63,094 nucleotides of DNA, filler included, from Craspedostauros australis (GCA_030167865.1; 9 parts of 9 records of this genome joined end to end with filler, not necessarily neighbours in it); one strand, 5' to 3'. Positions 17,221-59,012 are shown, counted from the first letter of the whole stretch. Notes: generated from the sequence alone by a model not told the origin. Made by a program: numbers and translations.

Positions 17221-18517
17221 CGAGGGGGGAGTGCCTGGGGATGGAGTTGCATCAACAACCAGTGGAGTAGTGGCGTTTGTACTAATCTTGTCTTGTGCCA
17301 TTGCATTTGGATGCAAGGGGATTTTGACTTGATCAGTTGATGTAGATAGGATGAAGAAATGATGTTCGCACAGTTGGTGTGGCTCTGCACTGATCCTCAG
17401 GGGTTCAGTGTTGAGGACTGACAAGGCTCCTTGCTCTTGTTGATCTCTCCATCTGCAGTTGTCTTCCAGTAGTAAGTACTGGCACCTGACACCTTGTTGA
17501 GGGTGCAAATGAAGACACAGCAGATTGTTTTTTGGAATTCAGAGTTAGATTCTCTGCTTGTGTTGAACCAGGTTGGATTTCTTTGCTATCATTGCAGTGT
17601 GTGAGCGGATGTCCTAGCTGAGGAGGGAATTGGGGCGGGTTGCAGTACGCAGGTTCAGCAAGAATTTAGTTCCCAGGACAGCTTGGATCGAGTCAATCAT
17701 GCCTTTGAGTCAGTGATGGTCTGTGAATAAAATATGGGAAGAGAAAAGGGGTGACAGTTGTCAGGGTTAGAAGAGTTTGCGCAACAGTGAATGTCAGGAA
17801 ATGACATGGGACACACTAAACGGAAAATAGTCTGTCCTTAAGTGAACTTCAACTCTATTGTAAAATCACATTGTCAGTGGAAAAGCAAAGTAGCATGCTG
17901 GTATTCCAACCCGGAGCCTCAGGTAGAATTTCTGGTGCTCTGCTGTTGAGCTACAGGTGCTGCAGTTGCTGAAACGGACAAATGTGTAATTTATAGATAG
18001 TGGGAGCTACGGGAGTAACGGACTTAACACTAAACGGATATATGCTGATAAAGGCGATGCGGGGCATGTCAACGCTACGGAGAGTGTTGGTTGGCCGAAT
18101 CATCCAATGCAACCAACTTGTCATTGCCCCACTGCTGCATCTCAGCTTCAGTGAGTTGGAACAAAGCAAGTGGGCAATGCACATGCAGCTCTCAATTATT
18201 GCTCGTTGGCTTGAACAAGAGCGCCAAGGAGACGATCAGATATTCATCCATGGGCATGAGACCGTACTTGCTCTGTAGAAGACAAACTGTGCCAACAGAC
18301 ACCAGAATTTACTGGCAAATCATTTGTATTCTTGTCCTCGTGTTCGTACTGGAGTTGGCTATTGGCAAACAGCCATGCAGGTTGTGAAAACAACATGCCA
18401 AACTAGGACAAGCAGATCTTCTCATCATCAGCAGCAGAGCATCAAATCAGTTTGTATTGCAGTCACATGCAGTGCTGCATCAATTCCATCGGTTGAGGCT
18501 TGGCAGAGGTTGTTGGG

Positions 18518-18960
18518 TGTCAGGAATTGAGGGTACGGTTTAGTCGTATTAACCTGTGATTGCCGCTCCTCCCAGCATGCCAATGATAGACCAATTGGTC
18601 TATCAAAGATGGACACACTCTGACTATCTTGTCGCCTGTCCTCCCTGTATATCAAGAGTATGAGCACACCACATGATCCACCTGATCCATTTTCTGATGA
18701 GTCTGTGTCCTTGTGTGCTGAAACGATTCTTCCTTCGCTCACAGATCCAACCACACAGAGACACACTACGGAATAAATCCTGACTCACAATCCAAGTCAT
18801 CTCATCTGTATTGTGATGTGTCCAATGCAGTATCCTAGACAATGGACACCTGCAATTAGGTTGTGCATGGCGTATTGACATCTCAAATGAGGTTTAGGGC
18901 GGTCAGGAATCGAGGGTACGATTTAGTCGAATCATCCTTTGATTGCCGCACCTCCCAAAA
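18518..18960 (+). mobile_element. Two LTR 5'-end fragments (18518, 18901) of the TGTCAGGAATCG Copia LTR family
   Basis: TGTCAGGAATTGAGGGTACG...TGATTGCCGCTCCTCCCA and GGTCAGGAATCGAGGGTACG...TGATTGCCGCACCTCCCA match the LTR starts at 25946(+) and 26868(-). Confidence 0.7.
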
Positions 18961-19695: not shown

Positions 19696-20589
19696 CGACT
19701 TACTTGTTGTTGATGCTCGCTGTTGCTGTGTTTTTTCGTCGATTTTTGCCGTTTTTTGTTCTTGATGTTGTTGCCTGTCGCCTGTTGCCTGATGCTCGAT
19801 GCCTGGTGCCTGGTCCCTGATCAGTAGGTCAGAGAACGAGGGCTCGTTGCCATGTTATTGGTGATTTTTGCCGCGTGTTTGGTCTTGATGAAGTTGATTT
19901 TCTTTGTTTCCTTAGCGTCTTCGGTGTGTTTGGGAGTGTTTGATCGCACTTCGTGGGATGTGTGCTTGGGCTGTCAGAGCACAGTATGTATGCTGTGATT
20001 GGAGCAATGGTGCAAGTTGGTGAACTATGGAACTTCTGAGCATGAATATGAGTTGCAATGATGTCCAAAAGTGGATTTCTGTGGCAAGCAAGGGAACAGG
20101 GGAGGAATGTGGTAGATCTAGTGCTTCATTGTGTCGAATCCCATGAGTTCCATGAGTTCCATGAGCTCGTTGCCCTGCAAAAGCTGGCACTGTCGGCATG
20201 CTTTTGTGACATCCATCGATCCCAAATTGTGAGCGGACGCAACTGTGACTGACTCCCCATGGGACCCAGTCCTGAACAACAAAGACAGCCATCGACCAGC
20301 ATACGCCATTTCACTTTTCAGACCACCTTGTGTCCCACTACCAACAGGCCACCCAGCTAGTGTCCATCCTTCTACAGGCCACACCAGCACCACCAATCCA
20401 GATCATCCCTAGCTACCCACAAGCCAGCACCACCCATCCACCATGTCCCCACCCATCCACAAGTCATCCACAAGTCAATCACTTCCTCCCTACCAGCCTG
20501 AAACCAGCCAAGTTGTCTATAGCCAGTAGCAACTAACCAACACATCTCTAGCCATAATTCATCACAACACAACCAACACATTCAACTAA

Positions 20590-23500
20590 TGTAGATGCCC
20601 CTGATGTGCCAGCAGAGGAAAGGCTTCCAGGCACTGATGGGATGTTCAACTTTTCAACACTGTGAAGGACAATCGACAGATGTATCTCACACCCAAAGAG
20701 AAACAAGATTTGAACAGAATGGAGAAGCCAGTACATGATTTCTTCCTTCACAGCACTCATGAAGGTGAAAACCTACCAACTGACAGGCCAGACAAAGACC
20801 CACACAGAGACACCATGGACTTCAACCTACATGAGACCTGGGAGTCACTGCTCTCTGGAGATCAAATGGGATCTTGCCTGGCTCTGTACATCACATGGAC
20901 TGTGTTGTACAGAATCCCTACCATCAGCCTCCACACCATTGTGGCCAAGGATGCCAGAAGGCCATACAATGAAATCTCCAAGAGGTTCCCATACTGGTGC
21001 ACCATCAACAATACAGCTGCAGGGCTCAAGGCCCTCTCTCACAGCTCCCCAAACTTCTCCATTATCTACCACAACCTAGAAAGAATCAACATACAGCCAG
21101 CCCAGGCTGTACAGAGGTCAGAGCCACTCACACTCCCTGACATCAGAAGGCTGCAACAAGGTGCACCTTCCACACCCAATGGATACAGAGATATTGCTCT
21201 GCTCTTCATTCTCTTTGAAACTGGAGCAAGGGGCACAGCAGCCATTGACAAAGCAATGAAGTGGCTCACATACAACAAAGACACCAAACAGGATGTCATC
21301 TACTTCAAGTCACAGAAATGGAGCAGAGACTGATATGACACCAAGGGAGGCAGTGCTGAGTGTTGAGGCCTCTGTGGCTAATAGAGCTAAACTAGTACCC
21401 AACTTAGAGAGAGAGACTACGAATCACCCGACCTGTCAGCATTCCAGTAGATCGAACAGATACTTCACCGGCCCCCACGTTTGGGGACAGATCCAGACCA
21501 TTGAAGCAGATCTTTGGAACCCGTGTCAAGGAACCAGTAGGGTTCCGATAATCGAGATACTGACACCCACCATCGCCAAAACACCGACACAGGGAAACAG
21601 TACCCCAGCAACGCACATCATTGCACCTTGTCTCTCACGGAACACAGCCAAGGGATCTCGACCCACGGTACATGGGCTACACGACCCATACGCACTGTCA
21701 CTCAGGACATCACAGGAGATCCTCTCCGCAGGGAAGAACCATAGCACTAATCTCATAATCCGCACATTTCTTCACCATCTACCAGTATTCTCAATTGACT
21801 ACTTGTGGAACAGAAGACTCTCGTTCGGACCGCTTGCCAATCAAGCCTCTGCCCAAAGCTATCAACAGCCAACAAGACAACAGCCATTACGTTTGGGCTC
21901 TATTAGTGGCCATGAGATGATATCTGAGAACATACAGACTGCAGAAGTGGAAACACCCTGGCCATCTCTTTGGTATTGCCCAGACTGAACAGATTTGCAA
22001 CAACATCAGAGCTCTCTGCCACTATGCAGGATACCCTGAGAGATACTTCTCTACTCATTCGGCTGCAAAAGGAAAGATGAACGATATCATTTGCAATTGC
22101 AAGCTGAAGGGTGAGCCAATCTCTGTGGGACCTGCTGATGCCGGGATCATTGGAGATTACACCACTACATCAAATGCACTGAGGCTGTGCTTTAGAAGCT
22201 TCTCAGATCGAGCTGATATGCATGGTGAGCAAATTGATTCCATGGACCAGCTGAAAGTGGAATAGCTTCATCCAGAGTTGCAGGGCAAGCTGCTCCCTGT
22301 CGTCAGACCATATCACTTGGTCACAGCCAATACCTTGTCTGAAAACATGAGACAAGAACTGGTTGAAATGGTCAATTGCCTCAAGTCAGACTCACCCACC
22401 AATGTCACCATGGAGGGAATGACAGCCAAGGAGATTCCTTCTCATATCTGGTGAACTCTGGTAAAAAGAATGAGAGACTGTGACTACCTTGGCAACTCCA
22501 CCTATGAAATTGGAAGGGCCATCAAGATAGGCATGGCCACAGATCATTTCAGAAGTTTTGGCAGGTGCTTGAGGTTCACAATGGCAACTGGTGATCTCAC
22601 CATCAACAAGCTGATCAAGTTGCCAGAAGATGCCATGCTTGAGGCCAGTGAACACATGCTGATGTACTTCAGATTGCCCAAGCTCAACAAGGGAGACAAG
22701 AGACAACTCATGGAGAGACCCAAGACCAAGTTTGATGCCTTGGAGTCAACCAATATCAAGCTTTACATCAAGGGACTCAAGAACAGGCTCCAAATTTGTA
22801 CAGAGGGTATTGTCATGGTGGCATCCACACAGTACAATGCAACCAAGGTCACTGACAACCAGGTGGCCATGATAGAGCAAGCAAAGCACAGTGGCCAGAA
22901 TGTGGATGAGACTGCGTTCTATGAAGCAGAACCTGATACTAAGGTGGCAGATCAAGTCACTGCCCCAGTCTACAAATCATCTGATGAAGAAGAGGAAGAG
23001 GAGGTTGCCAAAGCCACAGCACCAATATATGAATCTTCTGATGAGGAAGATGAAGAGCCAGTCCGGGTCATGGGAGGAGGCCCCCAGTATGAGCCTTCTG
23101 ATGAGGAGGAACAAGAAGAGACATATCTTGCTGTTCCAAGGAGACCACCACAGAAGCCTGAATCTCCACAGAATGATGATATGAAGCCCTCCTCCTCTGA
23201 AGGAGATGAGTGCAAGGACAAAGACTCGACGGATCCTGTGAATTCCACTGGTGGCTCTGGTGAGTCATGGGTTCCTTCCTCATCTGAGGTGGAGAGTGAT
23301 GACAACAACCCTTCCCATTTTGCTTCATGCCTCTCCAAGATGATCCACATTCATGACACTGACAGTGGCATTGGTGCTGGAAAACCATCTGTCATCATCT
23401 CACCCTCCGCATCTCCTTTGAAGAGGCCACACAGGGCAACCAGGGCTTCAACTTGTGCCCAACACATTGCAACCATGTCAGTTGCTGCAACAATGAATGA

Positions 23501-23651
23501 GAACATGCAACATACCATACGGAAGCAGCGCAGAAAGATAGAGAAGCCTGAGCAGAAGTGCACTTTCCTTGAAACGGCCAGCACAGTGATGCAAGAGCAC
23601 ATGAAAGGATACGCTTCTCTTCTCCAACAGATCTGGGTTCTCAAGATGTAA
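20590..23651 (+). pseudogene. Large tyrosine recombinase gene relic (Crypton/DIRS/PLV-type YR), interrupted by the insertion at 21379-21905
   Basis: EPLTLPDIRRL, Box I RDIALLFILFETGAR, KSQK, PREAVLS. After removing the insertion: HLFG, IRALCHYAGYPERYFSTHSAAKG (Box II) and GDYTTTSNALRLC. The same frame continues through stops into ORF 22470-23651. Confidence 0.8.
21379..21905 (+). mobile_element. 527-bp solo-LTR-like/MITE insertion with TAAT...ATTA ends and 5-bp TSD GTGGC
   Basis: Starts TAATAGAGCTAAAC, ends GTTTGGGCTCTATTA; GTGGC at 21374-21378 and 21906-21910; removal restores the YR frame. Confidence 0.9.
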
Positions 23652-24122: not shown

Positions 24123-24253
24123 GACATTCTTCCATCACAACATGAATCTGTCATGTCTGATGCGACATTCTTCTGCCACAACATCAATCTGTCACACCTG
24201 CTGCGACATTCTTCTGCCACAACATCAATCTGTCACACCTGCTGCGACATTCT
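24123..24253 (+). repeat. 41-bp minisatellite, ~3.2 copies
   Basis: GACATTCTTCTGCCACAACATCAATCTGTCACACCTGCTGC units start at 24123 (diverged), 24164, 24205 and 24246 (partial). Confidence 0.9.
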
Positions 24254-25623: not shown

Positions 25624-26521
25624 ACTGATGGAGGACATCGGGTTGAAGATGGAGAAGCCTGCAGATATAATGGTCGACAACGTGGGGGCGATCTTCATTG
25701 CCTCCAATCCATTGACATCAGCGAGAACGAGACACATCGATATACGCAACCACTTCATCAGAGAGCTGATTGCTAACAAGGAGGCGAGAGCTCGATTCGT
25801 GAAGTCAGAGGACAACATCTCCGACGGGTTCACGAAGAACACAAAGAAGGAAATCTATGATCGACACAAGGGGAGCATGATTCAGCCCAGATCGGCTTTG
25901 GACTGAACATGGTGGATGATATGGTTGGAGCGGCAATTGGAAGGGTGTCAGGAATCGGGTGTTCTGAAACACCGAATTGCCGCACCTCCCAGGAGTAAGG
26001 AGCCGAATGTCATGATATGCTACATTACCGCATCTCCCACATTTGGATCTTTGTGACAGAAAAATGTGAGCTGCACGTGTTTTGGTGATGGAGAACGACA
26101 CGTGCCGAATGCGAACCGTACCTTGGCGTTCGTGACCTCAATGCAGGAATGCCAATCACACGTGAATGTCGCAGGGGGCAGGGATGTGTTGGAAATCCGA
26201 GGTTAGTGTTAGTAGGAACTAATAGGTTGTTAGATCTTACTGGTTCAGAACTGTGAGCTCATTTTCTTCAGCTCCTTTGCCTTTCGTTTCACATATAGCA
26301 TTTTCGGCAGCAGCATCGTGTTGTACTGTTGCGTTCATGCATCTCATTGTCATGAATCTTTGCTTGCGTACATGAGATCATATCCGCAGGCATCCTTGTC
26401 ATGCACATCGTCGTGCATATCCGTAGGCATTCTTGCCATGCACCTCGTCGTGCATATCCTTATTCTACATTCCCTGCGGTACGATTCCACAGTCTTGTGT
26501 TTCTCTCTTGATCTCCTGACA
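25624..26521 (+). mobile_element. Copia 3' end: RNase H C-terminus (to 25906), PPT and complete 576-bp 3' LTR (25946-26521)
   Basis: VDNVGAIFIASNP..ARTRHIDIRNHFIRE..SEDNISDGFTK; TTGGAAGGG PPT; LTR bounded by TGTCAGGA...TCCTGACA. Confidence 0.9.
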
Positions 26522-29500
26522 CCGAACTTTACGATTGGTGTCATGTTGGGTGTCATGGATGATGCCCTTTCTGAGTTGTTCTAGTCCCTGGGTGACATGT
26601 GCCATGATCTCCAGATGGGGTGATCACCAATGTGTCGGTCATCATCTTCCTTCACATGATTTAGATGTCGTGGTCTTTTCTTGATTCATTGAGGACAGGC
26701 TTGTTTGCTTGGTAAGACTGAGGTCATTCCCGTGTGATTCGTGTCGTGGGTGGAATGGGCAATATTCAAAGGTGTGACAAATAATATCCAAAGGTGTGAC
26801 AAATAATGTTGGGAGTTGCGGCAATCATGGGTATCTTTTCGACAGAGTCGTACCCTCGATTCCTGACACCCTTCCATTGTCGCATAGACAACACATCACT
26901 CACACTCTCACATCTTTCATAATTTCGCGTCCTCTCCTCTCCGTCACTGATCCATTGTGGAACGCAGTTGGATGTAGTGATCCTTGTGTTTTTCGTAGGT
27001 CTCCTTTTTGGTATTCTTTGTAAAGCCGTCTGCAATGTTGTCTTCAGAACGCACAAACTTGGTTCTGGCCTCTCCATTGGTAATCAGTTCTCGAATGAAA
27101 TGATGTTGGATGTCGATGTGCCGTGTCCTGGCGGATGTTGATGGGTTGGAGGCGATGAAGATTGCTCCGACATTGTCGACCATCACATCTGCTGGCTTGT
27201 GCATCCTCAGTCCAATGTCGCTCATCAATTGTGTCACGAAGCGAATTTCCTTTCCTGCTTCCGACAGGGCGACGTACTCTGCTTCTGTCAAGCTGAGTGT
27301 TACGCTCCGTTGTGCCTTTGATCTCCATATGATCGGCACTCCTTGTAGTAGGACGATGTGCCCTCCTACGCTGATGCGATTGTCTTTGTCACCTGCGAAT
27401 TCACTGTCGGTGTATATTGCAATCTTTCATGCATCGTTGGTCAGTGGACTTGGATTCATCTTCAGTCCATATTCCCTCATGTCCCACACAAACTTCATGA
27501 CTCGTAGCATTTCCTTGTATGCTGTGGCTGTCGGTCCATCCAACACCTTGGTCAGTTCTTGCACTGCATTGGCGATGTCGGCTCGAGAGTGTTTCACCAG
27601 GTACAGCAGCATACCTACTCCGCTTCGGTATCTGCTGTGTCGTTGCTTGTCCACCTTGGGTGCATCGCTTTGCCTTTGGATGCCTTGCCCTGGTGTCCCA
27701 GGTGTTCCGTATCGTTGTAGTTTCACCACATCACTTCCAAACGTATCGATGATGTTCTTGAGGATGTGTGGCTGGTTGACCCAACAGTTCGTCTTGTCGT
27801 GGTTGAAGATGATCTTGCAGCTCAGGTAGTCTTCGAGATCCTCCTCCACTTTGACACCGAACCGTTCTGCTCGAATGTCTTTCACGAGCTTTTTCAATTC
27901 CTGCTCCTCTCCAATGCAGAGGCAATCGTCCACATAGGTGCCGACCAGTAGCAGTCTCCCTTCCTGATTCCGAATCAGTAGGCATGGGTCCACCTCGCTC
28001 TGTCTGAACCCCAGCTTGAATAGGATGTCGACAAGCTTCTTGTTCCATTGTCTCGCGCTCTGCACGAGTCCGTAGATGGTTTTCTTGAGTAGCAGGCATT
28101 CGTCGGCTTTGTGCCTCATTCCCTTTGGGCATTGCATGTAGATCTCTTCATCGAGGTCTCCATGCAGGAATGCTGTCTCAAAGTCAATGATGATACTGTC
28201 CATGTGTAATATCATCTTCATCGTGAGCATGATTCGATATGTTGCATCATGTATCACTGGTGCGTGGTGTGCTGAGAAATCGACTCCTGCGATTTGCGAG
28301 TATCCGCATGCCACGAGTCTGGCGCGGAATACCCCATTTCTCTTTTCCTTGAAGACCCATTTGGTCTTCACACACCGCCGATCCTTCGGCATCTGGTCCT
28401 TCTTAATTTTCTCCCATACTTTCCTTCTGGCCATATCATAGAACTCTTTTTTGATAGCTTCGCGCCATTTCTTTCTTTTGTTGGGATCTGCATGGTCCCA
28501 GCAGTCTTCGAATGTGGTGGGGTCTAGGAGCATTGCAACATTCGCGTGTTCCGCTCCGCCCTCACTTTGTTCGTCCTTCAATGCCTGGTCCGCAGCGATG
28601 ATGTCATCTAGTCTCATCATTCCTTGAGGTGTGTCTATCATTGTACCTGCGATATCTCTGTTGAATATTGACCCGTCTGTGTGGAAGTCAGGTCCTCCTG
28701 TTTCCGGTGGAGTTGTGATGGTCTCTTCGGGCGTCCCGTATCCCTCGCTGTCATTAGGTTCTGACTCATCACTTGATCCGAGATCTCGCTCCTCCTCTGG
28801 GATTGGGTCGTTGTTATACCCGGCGAGAGNNNNNNNNNNNNNNNNNNNNNNNNNNNNNNNNNNNNNNNNNNNNNNNNNNNNNNNNNNNNNNNNNNNNNNN
28901 NNNNNNNNNNNNNNNNNNNNNNNNNNNNNNNNNNNNNNNNNNNTCTCTTCGTTCGATTCATTTTCCCCTTGGGCAGGGAGCAAGCTATCTTGCCCTCGCG
29001 CAGCGTCATCAGTATCTTCTATTTCTTCGGCTCTGCTGCTGCGATCCACGTCGTCGGCCTCCATGCTCTTCATGGTCTCCGATCGTCGTTCCCAAGTTGT
29101 TCTCGTAGCTCGGGTGTTCATTCCCGACGTAGAGTCGTCATCTTCTAGATCTATCAGTACAGATCTGTTGGCATTCTCGATACCTCTGAATTGCCCGTAT
29201 GACTGATTCATCCATGTCACGTCTCTCGTGATTAGGATCTTGNNNNNNNNNNNNNNNNNNNNNNNNNNNNNNNNNNNNNNNNNNNNNNNNNNNNNNNNNN
29301 NNNNNNNNNNNNNNNNNNNNNNNNNNNNNNNNNNNNNNNNNNNNNNNNNNNNNNNNNNNNNNNNNNNNNNNNNNNNNNNNAATTTTCGTAGTCCATCCAC
29401 GAATGTTGGGATGCGGTTGTTGAAGAGAACACATGCTGGTTCTCTTGTCTTTGTCTCGATAATATTTTCAAGCTGAGTCGCGGTTCGGGCTGCCTCCGCC

Positions 29501-29554
29501 CACAATTTTCCACGCACTGTTTTCGGTAGGTGCGTTTGGTTGAGCATGGAGCGG
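26522..29554 (-). mobile_element. Ty1/Copia element: integrase end, RT, RNase H (to 26944), PPT and truncated 3' LTR (26868-26522); premature stop at 27427
   Basis: LWAEAARTA, KWVFKEK..RARLVACGYSQ, DFETAFLHGDLDEEIYM, LKKTIYGLVQSARQW, YVDD, YTDSEFAGD, RTRHIDI; LTR starts TGTCAGGAATCG after ATGGAAGGG. Confidence 0.95.
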
Positions 29555-29654
29555 NNNNNNNNNNNNNNNNNNNNNNNNNNNNNNNNNNNNNNNNNNNNTT
29601 AATTAATTAANNNNNNNNNNNNNNNNNNNNNNNNNNNNNNNNNNNNNNNNNNNN

Positions 29655-31740
29655 CCCCAATCGCCGTACAATCGTGCACTGTGGTGGTTGGTCCAAGATG
29701 ATCCCGCCAAGCTGAACTTTCCAACCCTCCCCGCACAACAGTTGCTGGAGCGGTACATCGGTGCATCGGTACATCATGATCGCTCTATACTATCAGCACG
29801 ATGGACCAAATTGGGTCTTCAACAAGGATTGGTTGACTGGACTGGAGACCTTTGTTTGGTTGGGAATCAGTTGCACAAATGATAATGCCGCCAACTTGGA
29901 TCAAATCAACGCACGTGAGTGATCCATTGGTACATACTGTGAAAAAACAGCTTACGATTACACATATGTATGGTTTGTATGATGGCGCTGATTGCACAGA
30001 GCTACATACTTGATGATTTGCGCAACAGCCTACTCTGCCTCACCACATCGTCTCCCTCGTCTGGCAATTCGCTCCACCCTTGCTGCACATAACTCCCCAC
30101 CATCCCTTGATCGTGATTGCACCTGCGAACCATACTTCCACATGACTCTACTGCCTGTCTCTGTGTGTGTTGAACTTCGACCCTTCAGTCAATAATGGAC
30201 TGAAGAATAGGATGTTGACCGAGATCGGGGTGCTCATTGATATGGGACGTATTATAATATCAATTTTGTGAGTGCACTTGCATTCGTCGCGGCGTTGTGA
30301 TTCAGGGGAGACGAACAGCTTTGAAAGAAAGAAAGGAAGAAAACAACACTCACATGCCAACGAAGCGATCCAATCCAACGTGCCCGTACATATTGGCTTG
30401 TGCTCAGACTGCATCCTCACACGTTGTTCGCACATCCATTCGTTGTTGCATAGCCGGGAACAGCATCAAAGGACCGTTGATATCAGAAATAGGACAACTC
30501 ACAAAGTTGGGTCGACTAGATCTTGGTAAGTTGCAAAAATATGTACATTCGCTGGATTCCTACCAGGCTCTACTTGCGGCTGACTCAGTATTGAATAGTA
30601 GAGTGGAACTCGTGTGCGTGGTATGATAGCTTGCAACTCACAATAATGGAGCTAAACTAGAAGTTAGGCTAAGGAAGGATTTCCTGGAACACATGACTCG
30701 TTTTCCCATGAATCGGCCTGAACCACGTTTCGGACATAACCACGTTTGGAGCAGGCACAAGTCTTCGAAGAAACTCTTTGAAATCCAGGACCCATGGAAA
30801 AAGGGTCCCAATGACTGTGTCATCGGAACCCCTCCCCACTGAAAACTTGATGCCGGTACAAGACTGCTGGATCTACAGTACGGTTCCACGTGGGAGTACA
30901 TGCAAGATGACCTTCGCCCAGCTTCCGGCTCCATGAAGGAAACTCTCCCATGGTACTGGAGCTACGCAAACCCTACGCCCCTTTTCTGACAGCAACCCAA
31001 CAAAAGGGCCCCCTCCTGTGGTACTTGGGCTACACAAACCCTATGACCCTTTTCCAGGGCAACCCACACAGGGTGTCACACCAACAAGAATAATTGCACA
31101 AATCTCATAATCCGCACATTTCTTCACCCATCATTCGTATTCTCAATTGACTACTTGTGATCCTGAAGACTCATGTTCGGACCCGCTTGCCAATCAAGCC
31201 TCTGCCCACAGCTATCAACAGCCAACAAGACAACAGCCATTACGTTTGGGCTCTATTACACAAAGCACAACTTCTTCCTTCTATTTCGCATTCTTCAAAA
31301 TCATCGCCAAAACCAACACCAACACCACAGCTCTCCAGACCGTTGCAGAATTGGCTGTCATGACTGGGGAGATTCCTTTGGAACTTGGGAAGCTCAGCGG
31401 CCTCTGAAGGCTCCAACTGAGCCACAACGGCTTCGTTGGCACCATCCCAACTGAACTCAATCAACTCTCCGCAAATCTCGATCTGAAACTCGTCACCATG
31501 GTGAATGTCACTGTCACCAGCAATCTCAATTCGATCCTTTGCAATGCAACGGATCCAACGCAGAAACGGACTATCGGTGAATACTCAGCTCAATGTCTAC
31601 CTTAGCAAGGCAGTGAGCTGCCAGCTATTGCGTGTGATTGCTGCAACGTCTGCTACAACGTCTGTTGCAACACTGCGATCTGTTGCGACATGATTGGAGA
31701 CGAGGGATGTTTCAATGATCTTCGTGGTGACTTAGAGAAC
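29655..31740 (+). pseudogene. Diatom-type multi-exon LRR protein pseudogene
   Basis: RALWWLVQDD..LLERY, ALYYQHDGPNW..WL..WLGISC (frameshift near 29751-29775); LRR exons GPLISEIGQLTKLGRLDL and GEIPLELGKLSGL*RLQLSHNGFVGTIPTEL; C-terminal CDCCNVC; GTGAGT/GTAAG donors; in-frame stops. Confidence 0.8.
30644..31258 (+). mobile_element. 615-bp second member of the TAAT...ATTA family, TSD CACAA
   Basis: Starts TAATGGAGCTAAACTAG, ends GTTTGGGCTCTATTA; CACAA at 30639-30643 and 31259-31263; the last ~160 bp are highly similar to 21750-21905. Confidence 0.9.
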
Positions 31741-50416: not shown

Positions 50417-51811
50417 TCATGCAAGCGATCGTGGATTCCAGCAAAAGCCCAGTTCGTTCAATCGGTCCACGCGCTGCTGCGTGATGTTCGATCGGCGGCC
50501 CTGCTTCATGAGCTTGTACTGGCGTCGCTGGCATTTGACCCAGACCGCAAGTGATGGGTTGTCCTTGAATCTGGTGGGGACGGTGCAGTGGCCGTGCTCC
50601 TTCTCGAACCTCAGCAACTCTTGGTACTTTTGCTCCCAAAGGCCGTGATGCGAGTCCCAAACGAAGCCGACATCGTCCAGCCGCTGCTGCCGGTTCCTCG
50701 TGAGGGTGGAATGCCTTCCCTCCATCTTGAGCTTGAACTGGTACCGTTGCCGCTTGACCCACTGCGCCAGCTGTGGGAAATCCTTGAAGGTGTGCGGCAC
50801 GCTGCAGTGACCGGACCGTTCCTTGAAGATCTGCAACTCCTTGAATCGGTGCTCCCACTGCGCCTCCTGGTGGTTGCGGATTCTGGAAGACGACTCGGCG
50901 TCCTCGTCGATCGGTGCTGTGCGCAGGTGAACGAAGTACGAGTACTCTGTCTTCGTCTTGGACTCGGCTCGTTTGCAGCGCTTGTGCTGCCGCAGGTACT
51001 CATCGGCAGATGGGGCGCGTTTCTTCGGTTTCGATTCTTGCGATTCTTGCTGTTGCTGCTGGCTGCACTCAACGAGCGGTCGCAAAAACGCGAGCATGGA
51101 TTCGTTGGTGAGTTCTTGCGAGGTGCTGATCATGTCGATGATGTCCACTTTGGGTACCACGGTCACGCGGCTTGGCTCGATGGGGACGGGTTCCAGCATG
51201 CGAGCGTCGATGCCGACCTCGCCGGTGGCGTTGCGTGGGTTTGCGCCGTGCACATCATCCGAACGACGAATGGTGAACGAGTCGGGAGGATTCGCGGCCG
51301 TCGACAAAATCGCTGCCGCCCTTCCTCCTTCAACTCCGTTCAAGTCGAGCGGGACCGATGTTGTCGACGTTGGCCACGGGAAGCAACGCGATGAGGCTAC
51401 GCACCCATCATCCAACTTGAACGTTGCGGGTTGTATCCAAGCTGCAGCGGTCGCACTGGACACAGATGCGACCGTGCTGTTCAGAGTAGATGGTCGCGCT
51501 GCGAACACCGTGGAGACGGATGGCCCAGAGGCGGTACGCAGGGCCGGGGGAGACGGCAGCGAGAGCATCTGATTCGAAGAGAGGGAGAGTGGGCACTTCA
51601 GGCCGTTCATGGGGAAAGGCGCAAGCTGTTGCTGCTGCTGGTGGTGGTCGTATGTCGTCTTCATGGTGTCGTTGGTTGCATCAAATGATTTGTGAGATGA
51701 TCGTCCACAATTGCCAATTTGCCCTGGGGTGGTTTGTTGTGTCATGAGCAACAAGGGAGGATTCATCGCCATCCGGATCGTGGTTTTGACAATAATGTCC
51801 CCTTTATTCAT
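50417..51811 (-). CDS. Helicase-associated (HA) domain protein with two C-terminal HA repeats; start uncertain
   Basis: WEHRFKELQIFKERSGHCSVP..LAQWVKRQR..LDDVGFVW and WEQKYQELLRFEKEHGHCTVP..LNELGFCW. Confidence 0.9.
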   Translation of the reverse strand: MNKGDIIVKTTIRMAMNPPLLLMTQQTTPGQIGNCGRSSHKSFDATNDTMKTTYDHHQQQQQLAPFPMNGLKCPLSLSSNQMLSLPSPPALRTASGPSVSTVFAARPSTLNSTVASVSSATAAAWIQPATFKLDDGCVASSRCFPWPTSTTSVPLDLNGVEGGRAAAILSTAANPPDSFTIRRSDDVHGANPRNATGEVGIDARMLEPVPIEPSRVTVVPKVDIIDMISTSQELTNESMLAFLRPLVECSQQQQQESQESKPKKRAPSADEYLRQHKRCKRAESKTKTEYSYFVHLRTAPIDEDAESSSRIRNHQEAQWEHRFKELQIFKERSGHCSVPHTFKDFPQLAQWVKRQRYQFKLKMEGRHSTLTRNRQQRLDDVGFVWDSHHGLWEQKYQELLRFEKEHGHCTVPTRFKDNPSLAVWVKCQRRQYKLMKQGRRSNITQQRVDRLNELGFCWNPRSLA

Positions 51812-54800
51812 CGAGAGACTGCGAGTCGCTCAAACCGGGCGTTGGTTGTGACTGTTGTGAAGGATTCCGAAGGGGGAGCTGCTCTCCAGGAATGTCCGGC
51901 CCTCGGCTTAGCTCTTGGTGTCTTGGACCGTGCGGTTCAGCCTGGCCACGCAGAGCTTTGGAGCCTCTTGGTCTGTCTCTCTCTCTCTCTTCGCTCCTGT
52001 TCCGCGCAGTTCGTGAAATGGATTGACCGAAGAGCGGCGAGGAATGTCAATGGCACCAAGATGTGAGCGATGGGTACAATATCTATGTGGAGGAGTACGA
52101 GTATGTATGCCATGACAGTTTGGTGTGGCGTGGTGTGGGACCGAAGTGCGCGGATGCGGCGCTCCGTTGGTATCAGGATGCACTGTCCGAAAGAGAACCG
52201 GATCGGTCGAAACGCAGCAATAACGATGCGGATGACGCTGTTGCTGGTGGCACTTGCGGCTCGTTGCCTTGTGATTCGGTACAGGTCTGCGAAATGATGT
52301 CGAGTATGGCAATGAAGACGCAGAGGACAAGCCCGGTGAGGAGTTTTTGGCGCTTCCGCGCTGGCAACCACCTTGTCTGGTGTTATCCAAGTGTGGGTTT
52401 TCGTGTGCTGTTGGTGTTGGTGTTGGTGTTGTTGGTAAAGTTCGCAACAAGCTGGAGAATTCTGGAAATTGTGACCACGATCAACCTGCGAAGCACCGTT
52501 TATGCACGAGGATGATGCCAGGAAGAGGAATCGCAGAGAACGAGGTGGACATGTGGGTGAGCAAAAGACCCATGACCACCCAAAACATCACTGGTGATTT
52601 CATGACACACGCGAAGTGCTTTTAGTCCCCCAATGGTGGCGGTATTCTGAGATGGACGTTCCATCACCTGTGAGCGTGAACAGCGCCCCTCCAGCTTGTC
52701 CAAAGTACTCATAGAACCTGCGAATATCTCCACTCGTATGTCCCCTGGCTGTTCTCGCCTTGGTCTGCTCAATTTCTCGACGGCAGCGGCGCTTCATTCT
52801 TCACTGGGTTGACCCTTGGGAAGGTTTGGCTCGACACACCGGCAGCCGCAAAATGGAGGCGGCGAGACGACATGCATGATGTCGTGCCGCACATTGTATG
52901 AGTATAAGTACTTCGAGTGTGCTGTGCAGGAGTGTTAGCAGAGAGTGCTCCATTGTCTTCTTCACGCCCTCGCAGACGAAGACATTGATTGTATGGGGTG
53001 AGGCGAGAAGTTTGGTGCGATATTCATTTCAGGTTTTGTGGCATTTGTTCATCTGCACCGTCCCCTTCCGTAATCTTGCTTCACGTACGCGTAATGACAA
53101 ATCCTGCTCATTTCGCAGTGGACATTCTGGGCATATTTGTGATGGACTGACGCGATATCTTCGTTTTTGGGGTTTCCAGAATGTCCTATCTTCTGCGACA
53201 TGAGGCATGTGAATCGCACGGAATAAGCAAGACACCTACATATGGTAGATTGTGAAACAGGGGAGTTAACGTCTGCATGGAGCTCCAAACACTCACATTC
53301 ATGGCGCTTGTGCAATATCCGGTAGCGCCACTGCGACATTTGCAACCTCGCGAGACTTTTTTCGTTTCCGCAGTTGTGGGCTTCATAAGTATGAGCAATG
53401 CGTCTTGATGTGTCTCACGTCGCTTTTCTTTTCGGCCAACGCGTCCCCCTGCTCAACTCGACTTGCACCCATCACACAAAGACCAATGACCACATTGCCG
53501 CCCTTGTCCTTCCGTCACCGTCTGTGCACGGTCATGCTTGTGCAGCGGAGTAGATGAGAGTAGAACAGAGTAGAGTAGAGCCAGGTCGTTGATGCCGAAT
53601 GAGAGGACTCCCTTCTCTTATTTCACCCAGGTTGTTGTACGAACATGACCGCAAGCCGAGCGAGGGAGGAAGGAACTGCTGCCTCCCGTGCCCTGCCATC
53701 CTCGTGCATTTCCCTGGACGCGGTGCGATCGATCTTCCTCACCTGCGTGGTAATAACTTTCACATGTTCGCGCCCATCGTCGTAGCCCGTACATGCAGAA
53801 CCGGCCTGGTCCACGCCAACATCTTTCGTTGCCGCCGATCTGTCGCGATTGACGGCGAATGTCCATGCACAAGTGTTGGAGTGGCATGTATAGTATACGA
53901 CCAGTTCGTCTGTGTCAACGACTTTCTTGTCCCTTTGCTTTGATGAGTGCGGAACTCGCGTTCTTTACGTAAAGCCGCACATCATGCATATGTGTTAGCC
54001 TAGTTTATCCGATCAACTGCACAACGGCCATCAACTTGTTCGCGAAGGTGGAGCTAGAAGCGCACAGTTCACGTTGTGACAGAATCAACCCATTTCCACA
54101 AGTAGTCATTTGTCTTCCTGTGCATAAATACATCTCAAATACTTCTTGTCCCCCTTCTCCATTGTTCCCTGTGCGTGTTCCGCCTGGCCCCACAACTCAC
54201 GTGCACCGACAAAACAACGAACGAACGACAAAAGCGACACGGTCAGATCCAACCAAGGATGTTCGAGAGGCTACTTCCATCCACGAGCACATCAACGTGA
54301 ACGCGCATGCACATGCACACATTCTCCGCAATGCTGAATGATGTACGAGCTGCTCGCACATCTGAGCACAGTTATCAGTATTCGTGGTTCGTCCAGTAAA
54401 TCCCTGTGGCTACGCATTTGGCTTGCTGCTCATGCAGGAGCTGCGGGAATTCTTGTGGCGACGGAAAATGGCCCGAATGTCCCAGGAGACCTGCTCATCT
54501 CTCAAATAGCGACCCGCTCGCCCATCGCCTCCCAGCGCGACAACAGGGGAAGTAATGCCACCAGGACACACGGCTATAACATGACAGTATCCGCAAGGAC
54601 GGTTGCATGTGCATTCATCTCTTTGGCATACTCACTGGCCATTTTCGGATGGCAGGGCCCACAGGGGGCTGTCTTGATGCTCTCATTGGCATTTCGCGAG
54701 TGGATGGAATGGTCGTGTCATGCGATGGCGCCATGATGTCGGTAGCTATTGCCATCGATTCAACATGGTTTCATTCAGTCAAAATACAGTAGAGCCTCAC

Positions 54801-55760: not shown

Positions 55761-57560
55761 TCAACCTTTCCGTGGGCTCCAGCAAAATCCGATGTCATTG
55801 AGGCGATCGATGCGTTGCTGGGTGATGTTGCTTGGGCGATTCTGCTGTAGTAGTCGGTACTGCCGCCTCTGGCACTTGATCCAAACAGCAAGACGTTTGT
55901 GGATGGAATCCTTGCACGGAACAAGGCAGTGGCCGTGCTCCTCTCGGTACGCAGCCAATTCTTGGAACCTGGATTCCCACAGAGCGTGGTGGGAGTCCCA
56001 CACGAAGCCAACATCGTCCAAGATCTGTTGCCTGCGATCTGTCAACGTGCAATGGCGGCCCTCCGTCTTGAGCTTGAACTGGTACCGCTGTCGTTTGGTC
56101 CACTGGGCGAGCTGTGGATGCACTTTGTAGGTGTAGGGAACGGCGCAGTGTCCAAACTGCCTCTTGAATATACAGAGCTCGTTGAATCTGGCCTCCCACT
56201 GTGTTTCTTGGTGTTGTCGAATCTGGTTGGAGTTTGGTGTTGTGGCATCATTACCTGGTTGAAATGATTGATTTGCTGTGTGCATCGAGGGTGTCGACTG
56301 CGCTGACGAAAGAGATGTGTGTGATTGTGTCGATGAGAGTATGCCAGCCGCGAGGGATGCCCCGGCAGCGTGAGGAGTACTGTTGCTGTGACTGTCGCTG
56401 GTTTTGGCGTTGGTGCTGACGCTGGTGGCGCTGTTGCTCCGACCAATGCTGCGGTCTTGGTTTCCCGCACACGATGATCTCCGCCTATCAGCTTGAGGGA
56501 GGGCTGTCTTGTTCTCCTTCTTGAACCGCTTGTGGCGTTTCAAATTCTCGTCGCTGGAGGGGACAAGCATCAGGGGACGAGTGTATCCGGTGGTAGGTTC
56601 AGTTGTGGCAGGTGGGCGTGTTGCGCTCCTGCTTCGTTTGCTCTTCTGTGAGTTGAGGGACGAGAACGACGCAGGCTTACCTGCAACTGCAACTGCACCT
56701 ACACTTGCAGATTTGTGTGGAAGAGCATGCGTAGTTGAAACCTTAGCTGTAGTTGTGGTTGCAGGTAGAGATGCAGATGCAGATGCAGCTGCAGGTAGAG
56801 GAAACGTTGAAGTGGAGGGCGCTTGTTTCCGAGCAAATGTTGCTGGAAATGAAACAGTCGTGTGATCAATTCTGGGCACAACCACCATTCGATAGGGATC
56901 GATCGGAACTGGTTCCATGTCAACCATGGCTGGATTCCATGATGTCGATAATGCCGATGGCAATGCTGTTGCTGTTGCTGATGCGGATCCCCTTGCTTCT
57001 GTCAGTTCTGAATGCGATGTATACGGTGCCGCAACTTCTGGGGCTCCCACTACTTTCGTTGACCCCAGCGGCTGCGACGTTCTTGGTGTTCGCAGTGGAG
57101 ATGAAGGCAATGATGCGAAAGGCAATGACGAGTCTGAGGAATCGAAGAGCCATGTCATGGATGCCAGCGGGAGTGGACTTTCCATACAGGACGAATGGTT
57201 CGCGTGTAGAGTTCCCCCACCAGGGATGCTTTCCGTATCAACGCATGAATCTTGATCGATGTCAAGCTGATCGAGCTTCGTGACATCCGTCGGTTGATGA
57301 TGTGCCATGCCAGCTCGGCTGCCTCTGAGGCGCAAAAAGTCGACGAGATTCCCGTTGCTCCTGGCGGTTGAGGATGGAGCAGACCGCGACGACATCAGAT
57401 CCGATGAGAGCGTCGCAGTCCTCGGCGAAGATGAGGCTGGATTCGAGAGCATGATGCGATCGATGTCCGCTGTGTCCCAACAATCGTCGCCAGGTTTCAA
57501 TCGATTATTCATCGTTGCATTCGTATGGAATGTATGGAATGTAAGTTGCTTGAGGGACAT
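55761..57560 (-). CDS. HA domain protein paralogue with two HA repeats (start may be 57512)
   Basis: WEARFNELCIFKRQFGHCAVP..LAQWTKRQR and WESRFQELAAYREEHGHCLVP..LNDIGFCW. Confidence 0.9.
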   Translation of the reverse strand: MSLKQLTFHTFHTNATMNNRLKPGDDCWDTADIDRIMLSNPASSSPRTATLSSDLMSSRSAPSSTARSNGNLVDFLRLRGSRAGMAHHQPTDVTKLDQLDIDQDSCVDTESIPGGGTLHANHSSCMESPLPLASMTWLFDSSDSSLPFASLPSSPLRTPRTSQPLGSTKVVGAPEVAAPYTSHSELTEARGSASATATALPSALSTSWNPAMVDMEPVPIDPYRMVVVPRIDHTTVSFPATFARKQAPSTSTFPLPAAASASASLPATTTTAKVSTTHALPHKSASVGAVAVAGKPASFSSLNSQKSKRSRSATRPPATTEPTTGYTRPLMLVPSSDENLKRHKRFKKENKTALPQADRRRSSCAGNQDRSIGRSNSATSVSTNAKTSDSHSNSTPHAAGASLAAGILSSTQSHTSLSSAQSTPSMHTANQSFQPGNDATTPNSNQIRQHQETQWEARFNELCIFKRQFGHCAVPYTYKVHPQLAQWTKRQRYQFKLKTEGRHCTLTDRRQQILDDVGFVWDSHHALWESRFQELAAYREEHGHCLVPCKDSIHKRLAVWIKCQRRQYRLLQQNRPSNITQQRIDRLNDIGFCWSPRKG

Positions 57561-59012
57561 TGATTGAATCGATCGGCGTCCTGTGGCTAGAAAAGCGACT
57601 GGTCGGTCGGATGATGGCTGATGAATCGCAGCGTTATCGTATTAGTACAACTGTGGTGCATATACTTGTGCACACTCCGCGATGGATCAAGCTCGAATAC
57701 GGGGTAGTATCGGGCAGAGTTGTTGACACGAAGCACACCGTTTGATGTGTGAACGGTTGCGGTTGCTGTTTTCGTGGGAGAGGAGGAGGCCGAGGACGAA
57801 CAGATGATAGATGCCGCTTCAGAAACAACGCATCGCGCTTGGTTCGTCGCGGTCGTTTTGTTGGAATCGATGATGTGGCTGTTGTTGTCTCTCTCGACAC
57901 CACCGCTTGGCAACTGCGCACTTTCTGGTCTGTGAATCGGCTTTGGTGGATGTGTGGTACGAGCATGGCTTGTCCTCCAGCAGCTCCATTTCCCAAGCCT
58001 GTGTGCGTATCGTGCGAGCAGCTCGTGCATGTTGCGCCAAACGCGCCCACGAATCCGGCCTGCATTGGAAGTTCCGTGGACTTTTCCGAGTGGCCACCAC
58101 GAGAATACATTTGTCTCGCGCGGGTTTTGGCCGTTCTCTCCCGTGCCAGTTCGGCTGTGTCCCACACATGTGTCCGCGAATGGCGCGATCGTGGTCAATC
58201 CAGGTCGGTCGAATGGCAGTTGGTCCGGAGGAATGGCGGACAGAATTACAGAACTCCTTTTGTACCGTGTTCGTCAAATCGGCTAATCCTGAGCACTTAA
58301 GCGTGATTCTATTTTGCGGTTGAAGAGGCCACATGAACGATGGCGAACGTCGCTGCGAATGGTCGACAAATATGCCTTGGACCCGTGGTAGTGCTAAGTG
58401 TTGCCTAGGCAACGACGCTTGCCGCGATGGGCAAGGGATTGGACAGAATGGGCCTCCGCACACACACGAAATTCAGCCTCCGGTCGTTGTTCCTCTGTTC
58501 GTCTCCATTTGTGAGTCTGATTAAGGCAACCGCTCACACCAAGGAAGCTTTTTTCCATCGCCTCGATGCCACCACAAAACCGACCAGTGTAGAGTACAGC
58601 ATGGCATGTTGGAGCACAACACGGTATGACACCGTACTCGAGATAACTCGGAAAGGACTTCACCTGTTTCGTGTTCAACATGAAGCATGTCGAGCACCGC
58701 AGCTCTCACCCCAGAGAGCGCTCCATTGCGCAGCAAAGTAGACTATTCGACATGGTGCATGTACACAAACAATGCCCCTCCGCTACTTGCAAAGCTCCCA
58801 CCGGCAATACACGCTCTCAAGTGTGTGTTATTGCCAAACTTTGTCCATACAATACGACTAGAGTGCAAGTATTGGTATCCAACGCATGCAACGCTCCAGT
58901 GGCCGTGGATGCGTGGATGGATTCAATGGAGAATAGAAATGAGATTTCGCATCTGAACGCACGACGTGTTTTACAACAAGTGCAGAACAGAGCAGATGTT
59001 TCCTTCATCTGG

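Follow-up and report, generated by a model that had tools for sequence, protein, structure and literature searches.

Eukaryotic transposons whose only enzyme is a tyrosine recombinase (YR) are hard to recognise because they have no structural hallmarks; to our knowledge they are rare, and sampling beyond fungi, oomycetes and animals is poor. CryptonS elements, which are YR-only elements of 2.9-4.7 kb, are found in oomycetes and in the diatom Phaeodactylum tricornutum, and they have a conserved C-terminal region and terminal direct repeats of 5-7 bp, according to the available part of Kojima & Jurka 2011 (PMC3212892). CryptonA and CryptonF, the latter with GCR1_C, are likewise eukaryotic YR-only elements, and inactive domesticated derivatives that have lost catalytic residues, such as the DUF3504 genes, are known as well. 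CryptonA recombinases match the DUF3504 model at E≤8e-12, as given in the same available part (PMC3212892). The locus described here occupies positions 20680-23651 on the plus strand of the window, which is the whole stretch of DNA that was analysed (63,094 nucleotides from Craspedostauros australis, GCA_030167865.1). On balance we read this region as a dead copy of a Crypton-like YR gene without reverse transcriptase (RT), which belongs to an unannotated eukaryotic family with its own C-terminal domain.

The locus shares with CryptonS a YR as sole enzyme, the lack of RT, a conserved C-terminal region after the YR and the lack of GCR1_C, and it is comparable in its low copy number and in size (about 2.9-4.7 kb in CryptonS, against a gene of about 2.4 kb and an outside contig, L019, of 3.3 kb), as far as the accessible text of that paper describes these elements. 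The CryptonS YR motifs listed in its supplementary file 4 are WYxFGRxSD, RVKTxxxQG, SHSFRRGGAQHAN and RGxW...FxY (PMC3212892, available in part). The motifs HESGARG, AQKRRG, SSHSxRAG and GDFGxNSDAxRSY of the present family are unlike these in a comparison made by eye only, and the stretch from Lys to His, again by eye, is much shorter in this family than in CryptonS. DUF3504 and GCR1_C give no match in any of the ten family members (Pfam, E≤10), and DUF3435, which marks the Starship captain, is absent from the Pfam matches of the same ten. An earlier sequence-only reading of this DNA had proposed an undescribed YR-only element; the YR without RT is supported, and that the locus was mobile and undescribed stays a proposal. 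YR-only CryptonS elements with a conserved C-terminal region are already described from a diatom in the available part of PMC3212892.

Relatives of the gene were collected with phmmer, in a full scan of 1.84 billion representative proteins with the first piece as query (E≤1e-3), which gave 10 matches. Seven of them are colinear relatives of 245-1003 amino acids (E 6e-30 to 1.6e-10, 30-42% identity), while P0007, P0010 and P0011 were rejected because they match through 9-17 repeated stretches; P0011 is a bacterial GA-repeat LPXTG surface protein. A profile search added three further members, so the family comprises ten clusters in total among about 15 billion proteins. All ten are from ENA, JGI or Logan environmental assemblies, on contigs of 2-11 kb, and no NCBI or UniRef record is present in any of them. 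The "members" of 55-56 amino acids in the P0008 cluster were rejected as unrelated small peptides. Word-indexed protein searches returned nothing with piece 1 (longer proteins) or with an X-read-through of frame 0. No relative was found in four scans of viral contigs (one with an alignment profile and three with single proteins), in an alignment-profile scan of JGI metagenome contigs or in a profile scan of prokaryote genomes; the match L020, from a second metagenome scan, lies in a polysaccharide locus of a bacterium and was rejected as spurious. The cluster records and the prokaryote scan count towards a selfish or patchy distribution of the family.

A family hidden Markov model (HMM) of 634 positions was built from the ten outside proteins, with the window copy excluded. 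It matches the window in hmmsearch at 20647-21318 (HMM 53-261, E 4.5e-56), 21942-22262 (HMM 292-398, E 2e-30), 22266-22406 (HMM 400-446, E 2e-4) and 22458-22922 (HMM 467-619, E 4.2e-20), in collinear order with the window pieces and spanning positions 53-619 of the model. As a model made from outside proteins matches the pieces in order, the reconstruction of the gene is backed by independent sequences, and the ordered matches bear out the proposal of the sequence-only reading that one hidden gene lies here. These matches stand well clear of chance, and the six-frame translation of the window has no other match to the family HMM below E 0.29. Pfam models run on the five raw pieces give no recombinase family, the sole match being DUF7862 in the last piece (E 0.076).

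The stop-to-stop frames on the plus strand at 20638-23651 measure 231, 242, 114, 62 and 398 codons, and the window sequence and the family HMM together join them into a single colinear gene remnant at 20680-23651, of which all parts described below are on that strand. The frame-1 part (20680-21318) starts at a putative ATG at 20680, placed by alignment with relatives, and contains a helical N-terminal region, the box I Arg (AGG 21229-31, within FETGARG) and the catalytic-loop Lys (AAA 21316-18), which are both kept in the window copy. Directly after the Lys codon the three-frame translations show a frameshift, one extra base at 21319, and the match to the family is resumed at the Gly codon 21320-22. 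Relatives have QKRRGT..VLSVEAS at this place, and the window copy has SQK in frame 1 and then GAETDMTPREAVLSVEAS in frame 2. The frame-2 segment GAETDMTPREAVLSVEASV (21320-21378) bridges the gap between the HMM-matched pieces, with a VLSVEAS that is the same as in P0002 and P0005, and it ends at an insertion of 527 bp (21379-21905). This is a non-autonomous insertion with terminal inverted repeats (TIR), TAATAGAGC/GCTCTATTA, similar to a miniature inverted-repeat transposable element (MITE) and foreign to the gene. Its 5-bp target duplication, GTGGC, stands at 21374-78, where it forms the final five bases of the frame-2 segment, and again at 21906-10. When the insertion and one copy of the duplication are taken out, frame 2 is directly continuous with frame 0 at VLSVEAS, and the gene before insertion measures about 2.4 kb. 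The length of the insertion had been read exactly before, and the single frameshift, then placed near 21315, had been put within a few bases of its site.

The second half of the catalytic domain lies in frame 0 (21911-22262) and is supported by the HMM 292-398 match and by the relatives. It contains an in-frame TGA (21918-20), the box II HSAAK (22056-70), GDY (22152-60) and a Cys codon, TGC (22188-90). An Ala (22065-67) occupies the box II Arg position (HSAAKG, against HSxRAG in relatives) and the Cys occupies the position of the nucleophile Tyr of relatives (LRLC against LRSY), so both losses suspected from the sequence hold against the relatives. An in-frame TAG (22263-65) falls at the conserved Gln of the family motif (E)QLHPEL. 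The conserved C-terminal domain (LHPEL..., GDLT...; 22266-22922), which corresponds to the HMM 400-446 and 467-619 matches, carries a further in-frame TGA (22452-54) and is followed by an acidic, Ser-rich tail (22923-23651) that is specific to the window copy and ends in a TAA stop (23649-51). As the joined frame contains three in-frame stops, the same-frame continuation of about 480 codons that had been claimed is colinear but not open, and the copy is more broken than stated, by three extra nonsense codons. With its catalytic domain split by the insertion and its frame broken by the frameshift and by the three stops, it cannot make an active enzyme; it is a dead pseudogene and, taken by itself, no more than common debris of the genome.

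The outside members of the family share the motifs HE[ST]GARG, AQKRRG, SSHSxRAG and GDFGxNSDAxRSY, which set out catalytic residues in the order R...K...HxxR...[F/W]...Y. The box I Arg and the Lys are invariant in all ten members, and the His and the Tyr are present in each of the nine members that cover these positions. The second Arg is found in seven of these nine, whereas P0008 has Cys and P0009 has Lys at this position. The window copy itself lacks the full set, with its Ala at the second Arg and its Cys at the Tyr. Lambda Int, Cre and XerC/D, which belong to Phage_integrase (PF00589), have the same order and alignment of R, (K), HxxR, the H/W position and Y. In place of the His or Trp of the bacterial enzymes the family has Asp-Phe (Glu-Trp in P0008), and it differs from lambda Int, Cre and XerC/D also by an additional domain at the C-terminus, about 220 HMM positions long, by its eukaryotic host and by scores below the Pfam threshold.

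The family core was compared in hhalign with an alignment of 15 YR sequences, formed by lambda Int, Cre, XerC, XerD, FimB, FimE and nine K-12 prophage integrases. The comparison gives E 1.8e-4, a probability of 48% and a score of 38.9 over 177 columns. In it P0013 R155, H253, R256, D286 and Y297 are paired with lambda Int R212, H308, R311, H333 and Y342, which we take to be the catalytic residues of lambda Int, while P0013 K184 is three residues away from lambda Int K235, in a gapped loop. Among the 31 shuffled or reversed controls, the reversed one scores 13.6, the 15 column shuffles at most 22.7 and the 15 block shuffles at most 25.6; the C-terminus of the family, compared with the YR alignment as a further control, scores 16.1. 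Against three subsets of the YR alignment the family core scores 29.9-37.5. Comparisons with Cre alone (E 0.28) and lambda Int alone (E 0.63) are not significant, and the N-terminal helical region of the family is in register with the N-terminal domain of Cre, also at a level that is not significant (E 0.28). A PHROG integrase is matched weakly by one of the ten members (E 0.038). Language-model neighbours of P0013 are clusters with Phage_integrase and ALOG (score 0.96), and in the language-model search all ten best named matches fall within one family or clan; these two results are taken as leads only. The catalytic pattern and the profile comparison, which lands on the YR domain, make it highly probable that the family consists of tyrosine recombinases, in agreement with the YR catalytic domain that the sequence-only reading had proposed from motif strings, all of which are present in the translations.

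The window contains genes for eIF2A, ribosomal protein P0, a trypsin-like protein and HA-domain proteins and a Copia-type RT (Pfam), and it is eukaryotic nuclear DNA. Pfam models were run on 20 large open reading frames (ORFs) and on 52 ORFs of at least 90 amino acids between 11.5 and 32 kb, the latter drawn from 68, of which the remaining 16 overlap the gene or were already scanned. No RT, ribonuclease H (RNase H), capsid, ATPase or polymerase domain was found in these ORFs except a separate Copia RVT_2 (27430-28827), which is on the minus strand, 3.7 kb from the gene. Within about 8 kb upstream and 3.7 kb downstream of the gene no RT, RNase H or capsid domain is present, as had been said of its neighbourhood. 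The outside contig L019, of 3308 nt, has an intact intronless P0008 gene at 1152-2813 and no second ORF above 82 amino acids. Both in the window flanks and on L019, the YR is thus the sole enzyme, with neither RT nor RNase H, as in Cryptons. DIRS, Ngaro and VIPER elements also encode a eukaryotic YR but need an adjoining RT and RNase H, neither of which is present at the window locus or on L019, and a DIRS-type arrangement is ruled out for these two loci.

The locus is most likely what is left of a Crypton-like DNA element that had no RT. An intact protein of the family would begin with a helical N-terminal domain, continue with the YR catalytic domain and finish with the conserved C-terminal domain. 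In catalysis, Arg, Lys, His-x-x-Arg and the aromatic residue would activate the scissile phosphate and the Tyr would form a 3'-phosphotyrosyl link, while the C-terminal domain might act in DNA or chromatin targeting or in assembly. By analogy with Cryptons, an active element would be excised as a circle via recombination between short end repeats, and the circle would be re-inserted at a similar short site. The MITE insertion into the catalytic domain is a later event.

Several results weigh against an origin from such an element. Cre, used as a positive control in the same hhalign set-up, scores 59.9, against 38.9 for the family at its probability of 48%. The Pfam Phage_integrase model is matched by one of the ten members only, below threshold (13.7 bits against a cut-off of 27.1, E 0.054), and neither two of the pieces nor the family profile retrieves a recombinase from the PDB sequences. 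The 63-kb window has one copy of the gene, with no ends or empty site defined, and the DNA context of the family outside it comes from the single 3.3-kb contig L019. Finally, the window copy keeps about 27 of 35 family-conserved columns and has changed about 8 of 35, against only three stops; therefore part of its divergence, the active-site changes included, may be older than its decay, and this fits a non-catalytic derivative.

Such a derivative could be a host gene that arose from a YR, domesticated and possibly non-catalytic like the DUF3504 genes, of which the window copy would be a pseudogene. The second Arg and the Tyr are lost from the window copy though it retains long frames, with 398 codons open, P0008 and P0009 are likewise without the second Arg, the gene is single in 63 kb, and domestication of Crypton YRs is documented in the available part of PMC3212892. 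The full catalytic set is nevertheless kept in seven of nine relatives, no member is found in a named genome annotation, which would be odd for a conserved host gene, and the copy has tolerated a MITE insertion, a frameshift and three stops; a host gene is therefore an unlikely source of the remnant.

A fragment of a larger YR-using element, whether polinton-like, giant-virus, Starship-like or DIRS-like, whose other genes have decayed or lie outside, is about equally improbable. Eukaryotic YRs are known from such units, and the flanking ORFs without Pfam match are compatible with decayed cargo. The neighbours at 11.5-32 kb, however, include no capsid, ATPase, polymerase, RT or RNase H apart from the Copia RT, the four scans of viral contigs brought no relative and Pfam no DUF3435 match, and on L019 the gene stands alone. 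A non-recombinase eukaryotic family that shows the R, K, H, R, Y pattern by chance is less probable still, for although no curated-threshold match exists in Pfam, PHROGs or PDB and the hhalign probability is below 50%, five conserved residues fall exactly on the catalytic ones of lambda Int within a single 177-column alignment in ungapped order, none of the 31 shuffled or reversed controls reaches the family's score, which is stable in the three subsets, and the language-model neighbours are YR families.

If the remnant derives from an RT-less Crypton-like element, a further and more doubtful suggestion is that the family represents a new deep lineage of YR-only (Crypton-like) elements in marine protists, apart from CryptonF, S, A and I, and marked by a Phe/Trp pocket variant, its own C-terminal domain and movable acidic modules. 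A description of the family was not found in the literature searched, including the available parts of PMC3212892 and PMC12130899. The remnant has led to an unannotated protein family of ten clusters, none of which reaches the Pfam threshold, and the family has the look of an active recombinase to which a conserved domain has been added. Should intact copies be mobile, Crypton-type elements would have a wider known range in algae, repeat annotation in the genomes of diatoms and other protists would gain a profile, and a new recombinase would become available together with its site.

The C-terminal domain, which has about 220 HMM positions, is conserved in the family up to HMM 619, corresponding to window position 22922, and gives no Pfam, PDB or Atlas lead. 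The long C-terminal extension noticed at first is thus a conserved feature of the family up to this position. Beyond it, the three P.Y..SDEE repeats that had been reported in the window tail are real; they have the form hydrophobic-Y-x-S-(S/D)-D/E-E-E and lie at about 22959-23124. P0003 and its cluster members have three instances of a similar motif in their N-terminal extension (P0003 residues about 190-400). The motif, which thus sits at opposite ends of these proteins, looks like a movable acidic module. Modules of the type Y-x-S-S-D-E-E might anchor the recombinase on chromatin, perhaps by phospho-dependent binding to SUMO or to histones.

A second copy of the TIR family that interrupts the gene is present at 30644-31258, with its own 5-bp duplication, CACAA. 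The 5' ends of the two copies have 17 nt in common and their 3' ends about 172 nt (90% identity); both have ends of the form TAAT[A/G]GAGC...GCTCTATTA, and their interiors are unrelated. Repeats of about 69 nt, which are 76-83% identical, are dispersed on both sides of the gene at 18506-18574, 18889-18957, 26806-26871 (minus strand) and 25943-26039. The first three were considered as element ends and rejected, being dispersed and not specific to the gene, and these repeats probably make up a further small family. A direct repeat of 19 nt at 20569/24738 (17/19 identical) was also rejected; in CA-rich DNA it is a match at chance level, and therefore no element ends are claimed.

Short tandem repeats are found about 400-470 bp past the stop codon of the gene in both L019 and the window. 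In the window they are three units of 41 bp (24123-24253), and at the 3' end of L019 (3190-3308) they are five 21-bp units, TGGTAAGGATTGGTTTATCCT, in each of which the arms of a 6-bp inverted repeat enclose a 6-bp spacer. Towards its 5' end L019 has GGTAAG two more times (3-10 and 69-77). These repeats may be recombinase sites or chance. The Copia-type retrotransposon pol, to which the RVT_2 domain belongs (E 2.9e-41), extends over 27427-29598 on the minus strand, is interrupted by N runs and is separate from the recombinase gene. Farther away, two adjacent genes with HA-domain (helicase-associated) repeats are present on the minus strand at 50420-51829 and 55764-57641, with E of about 1e-35 each.

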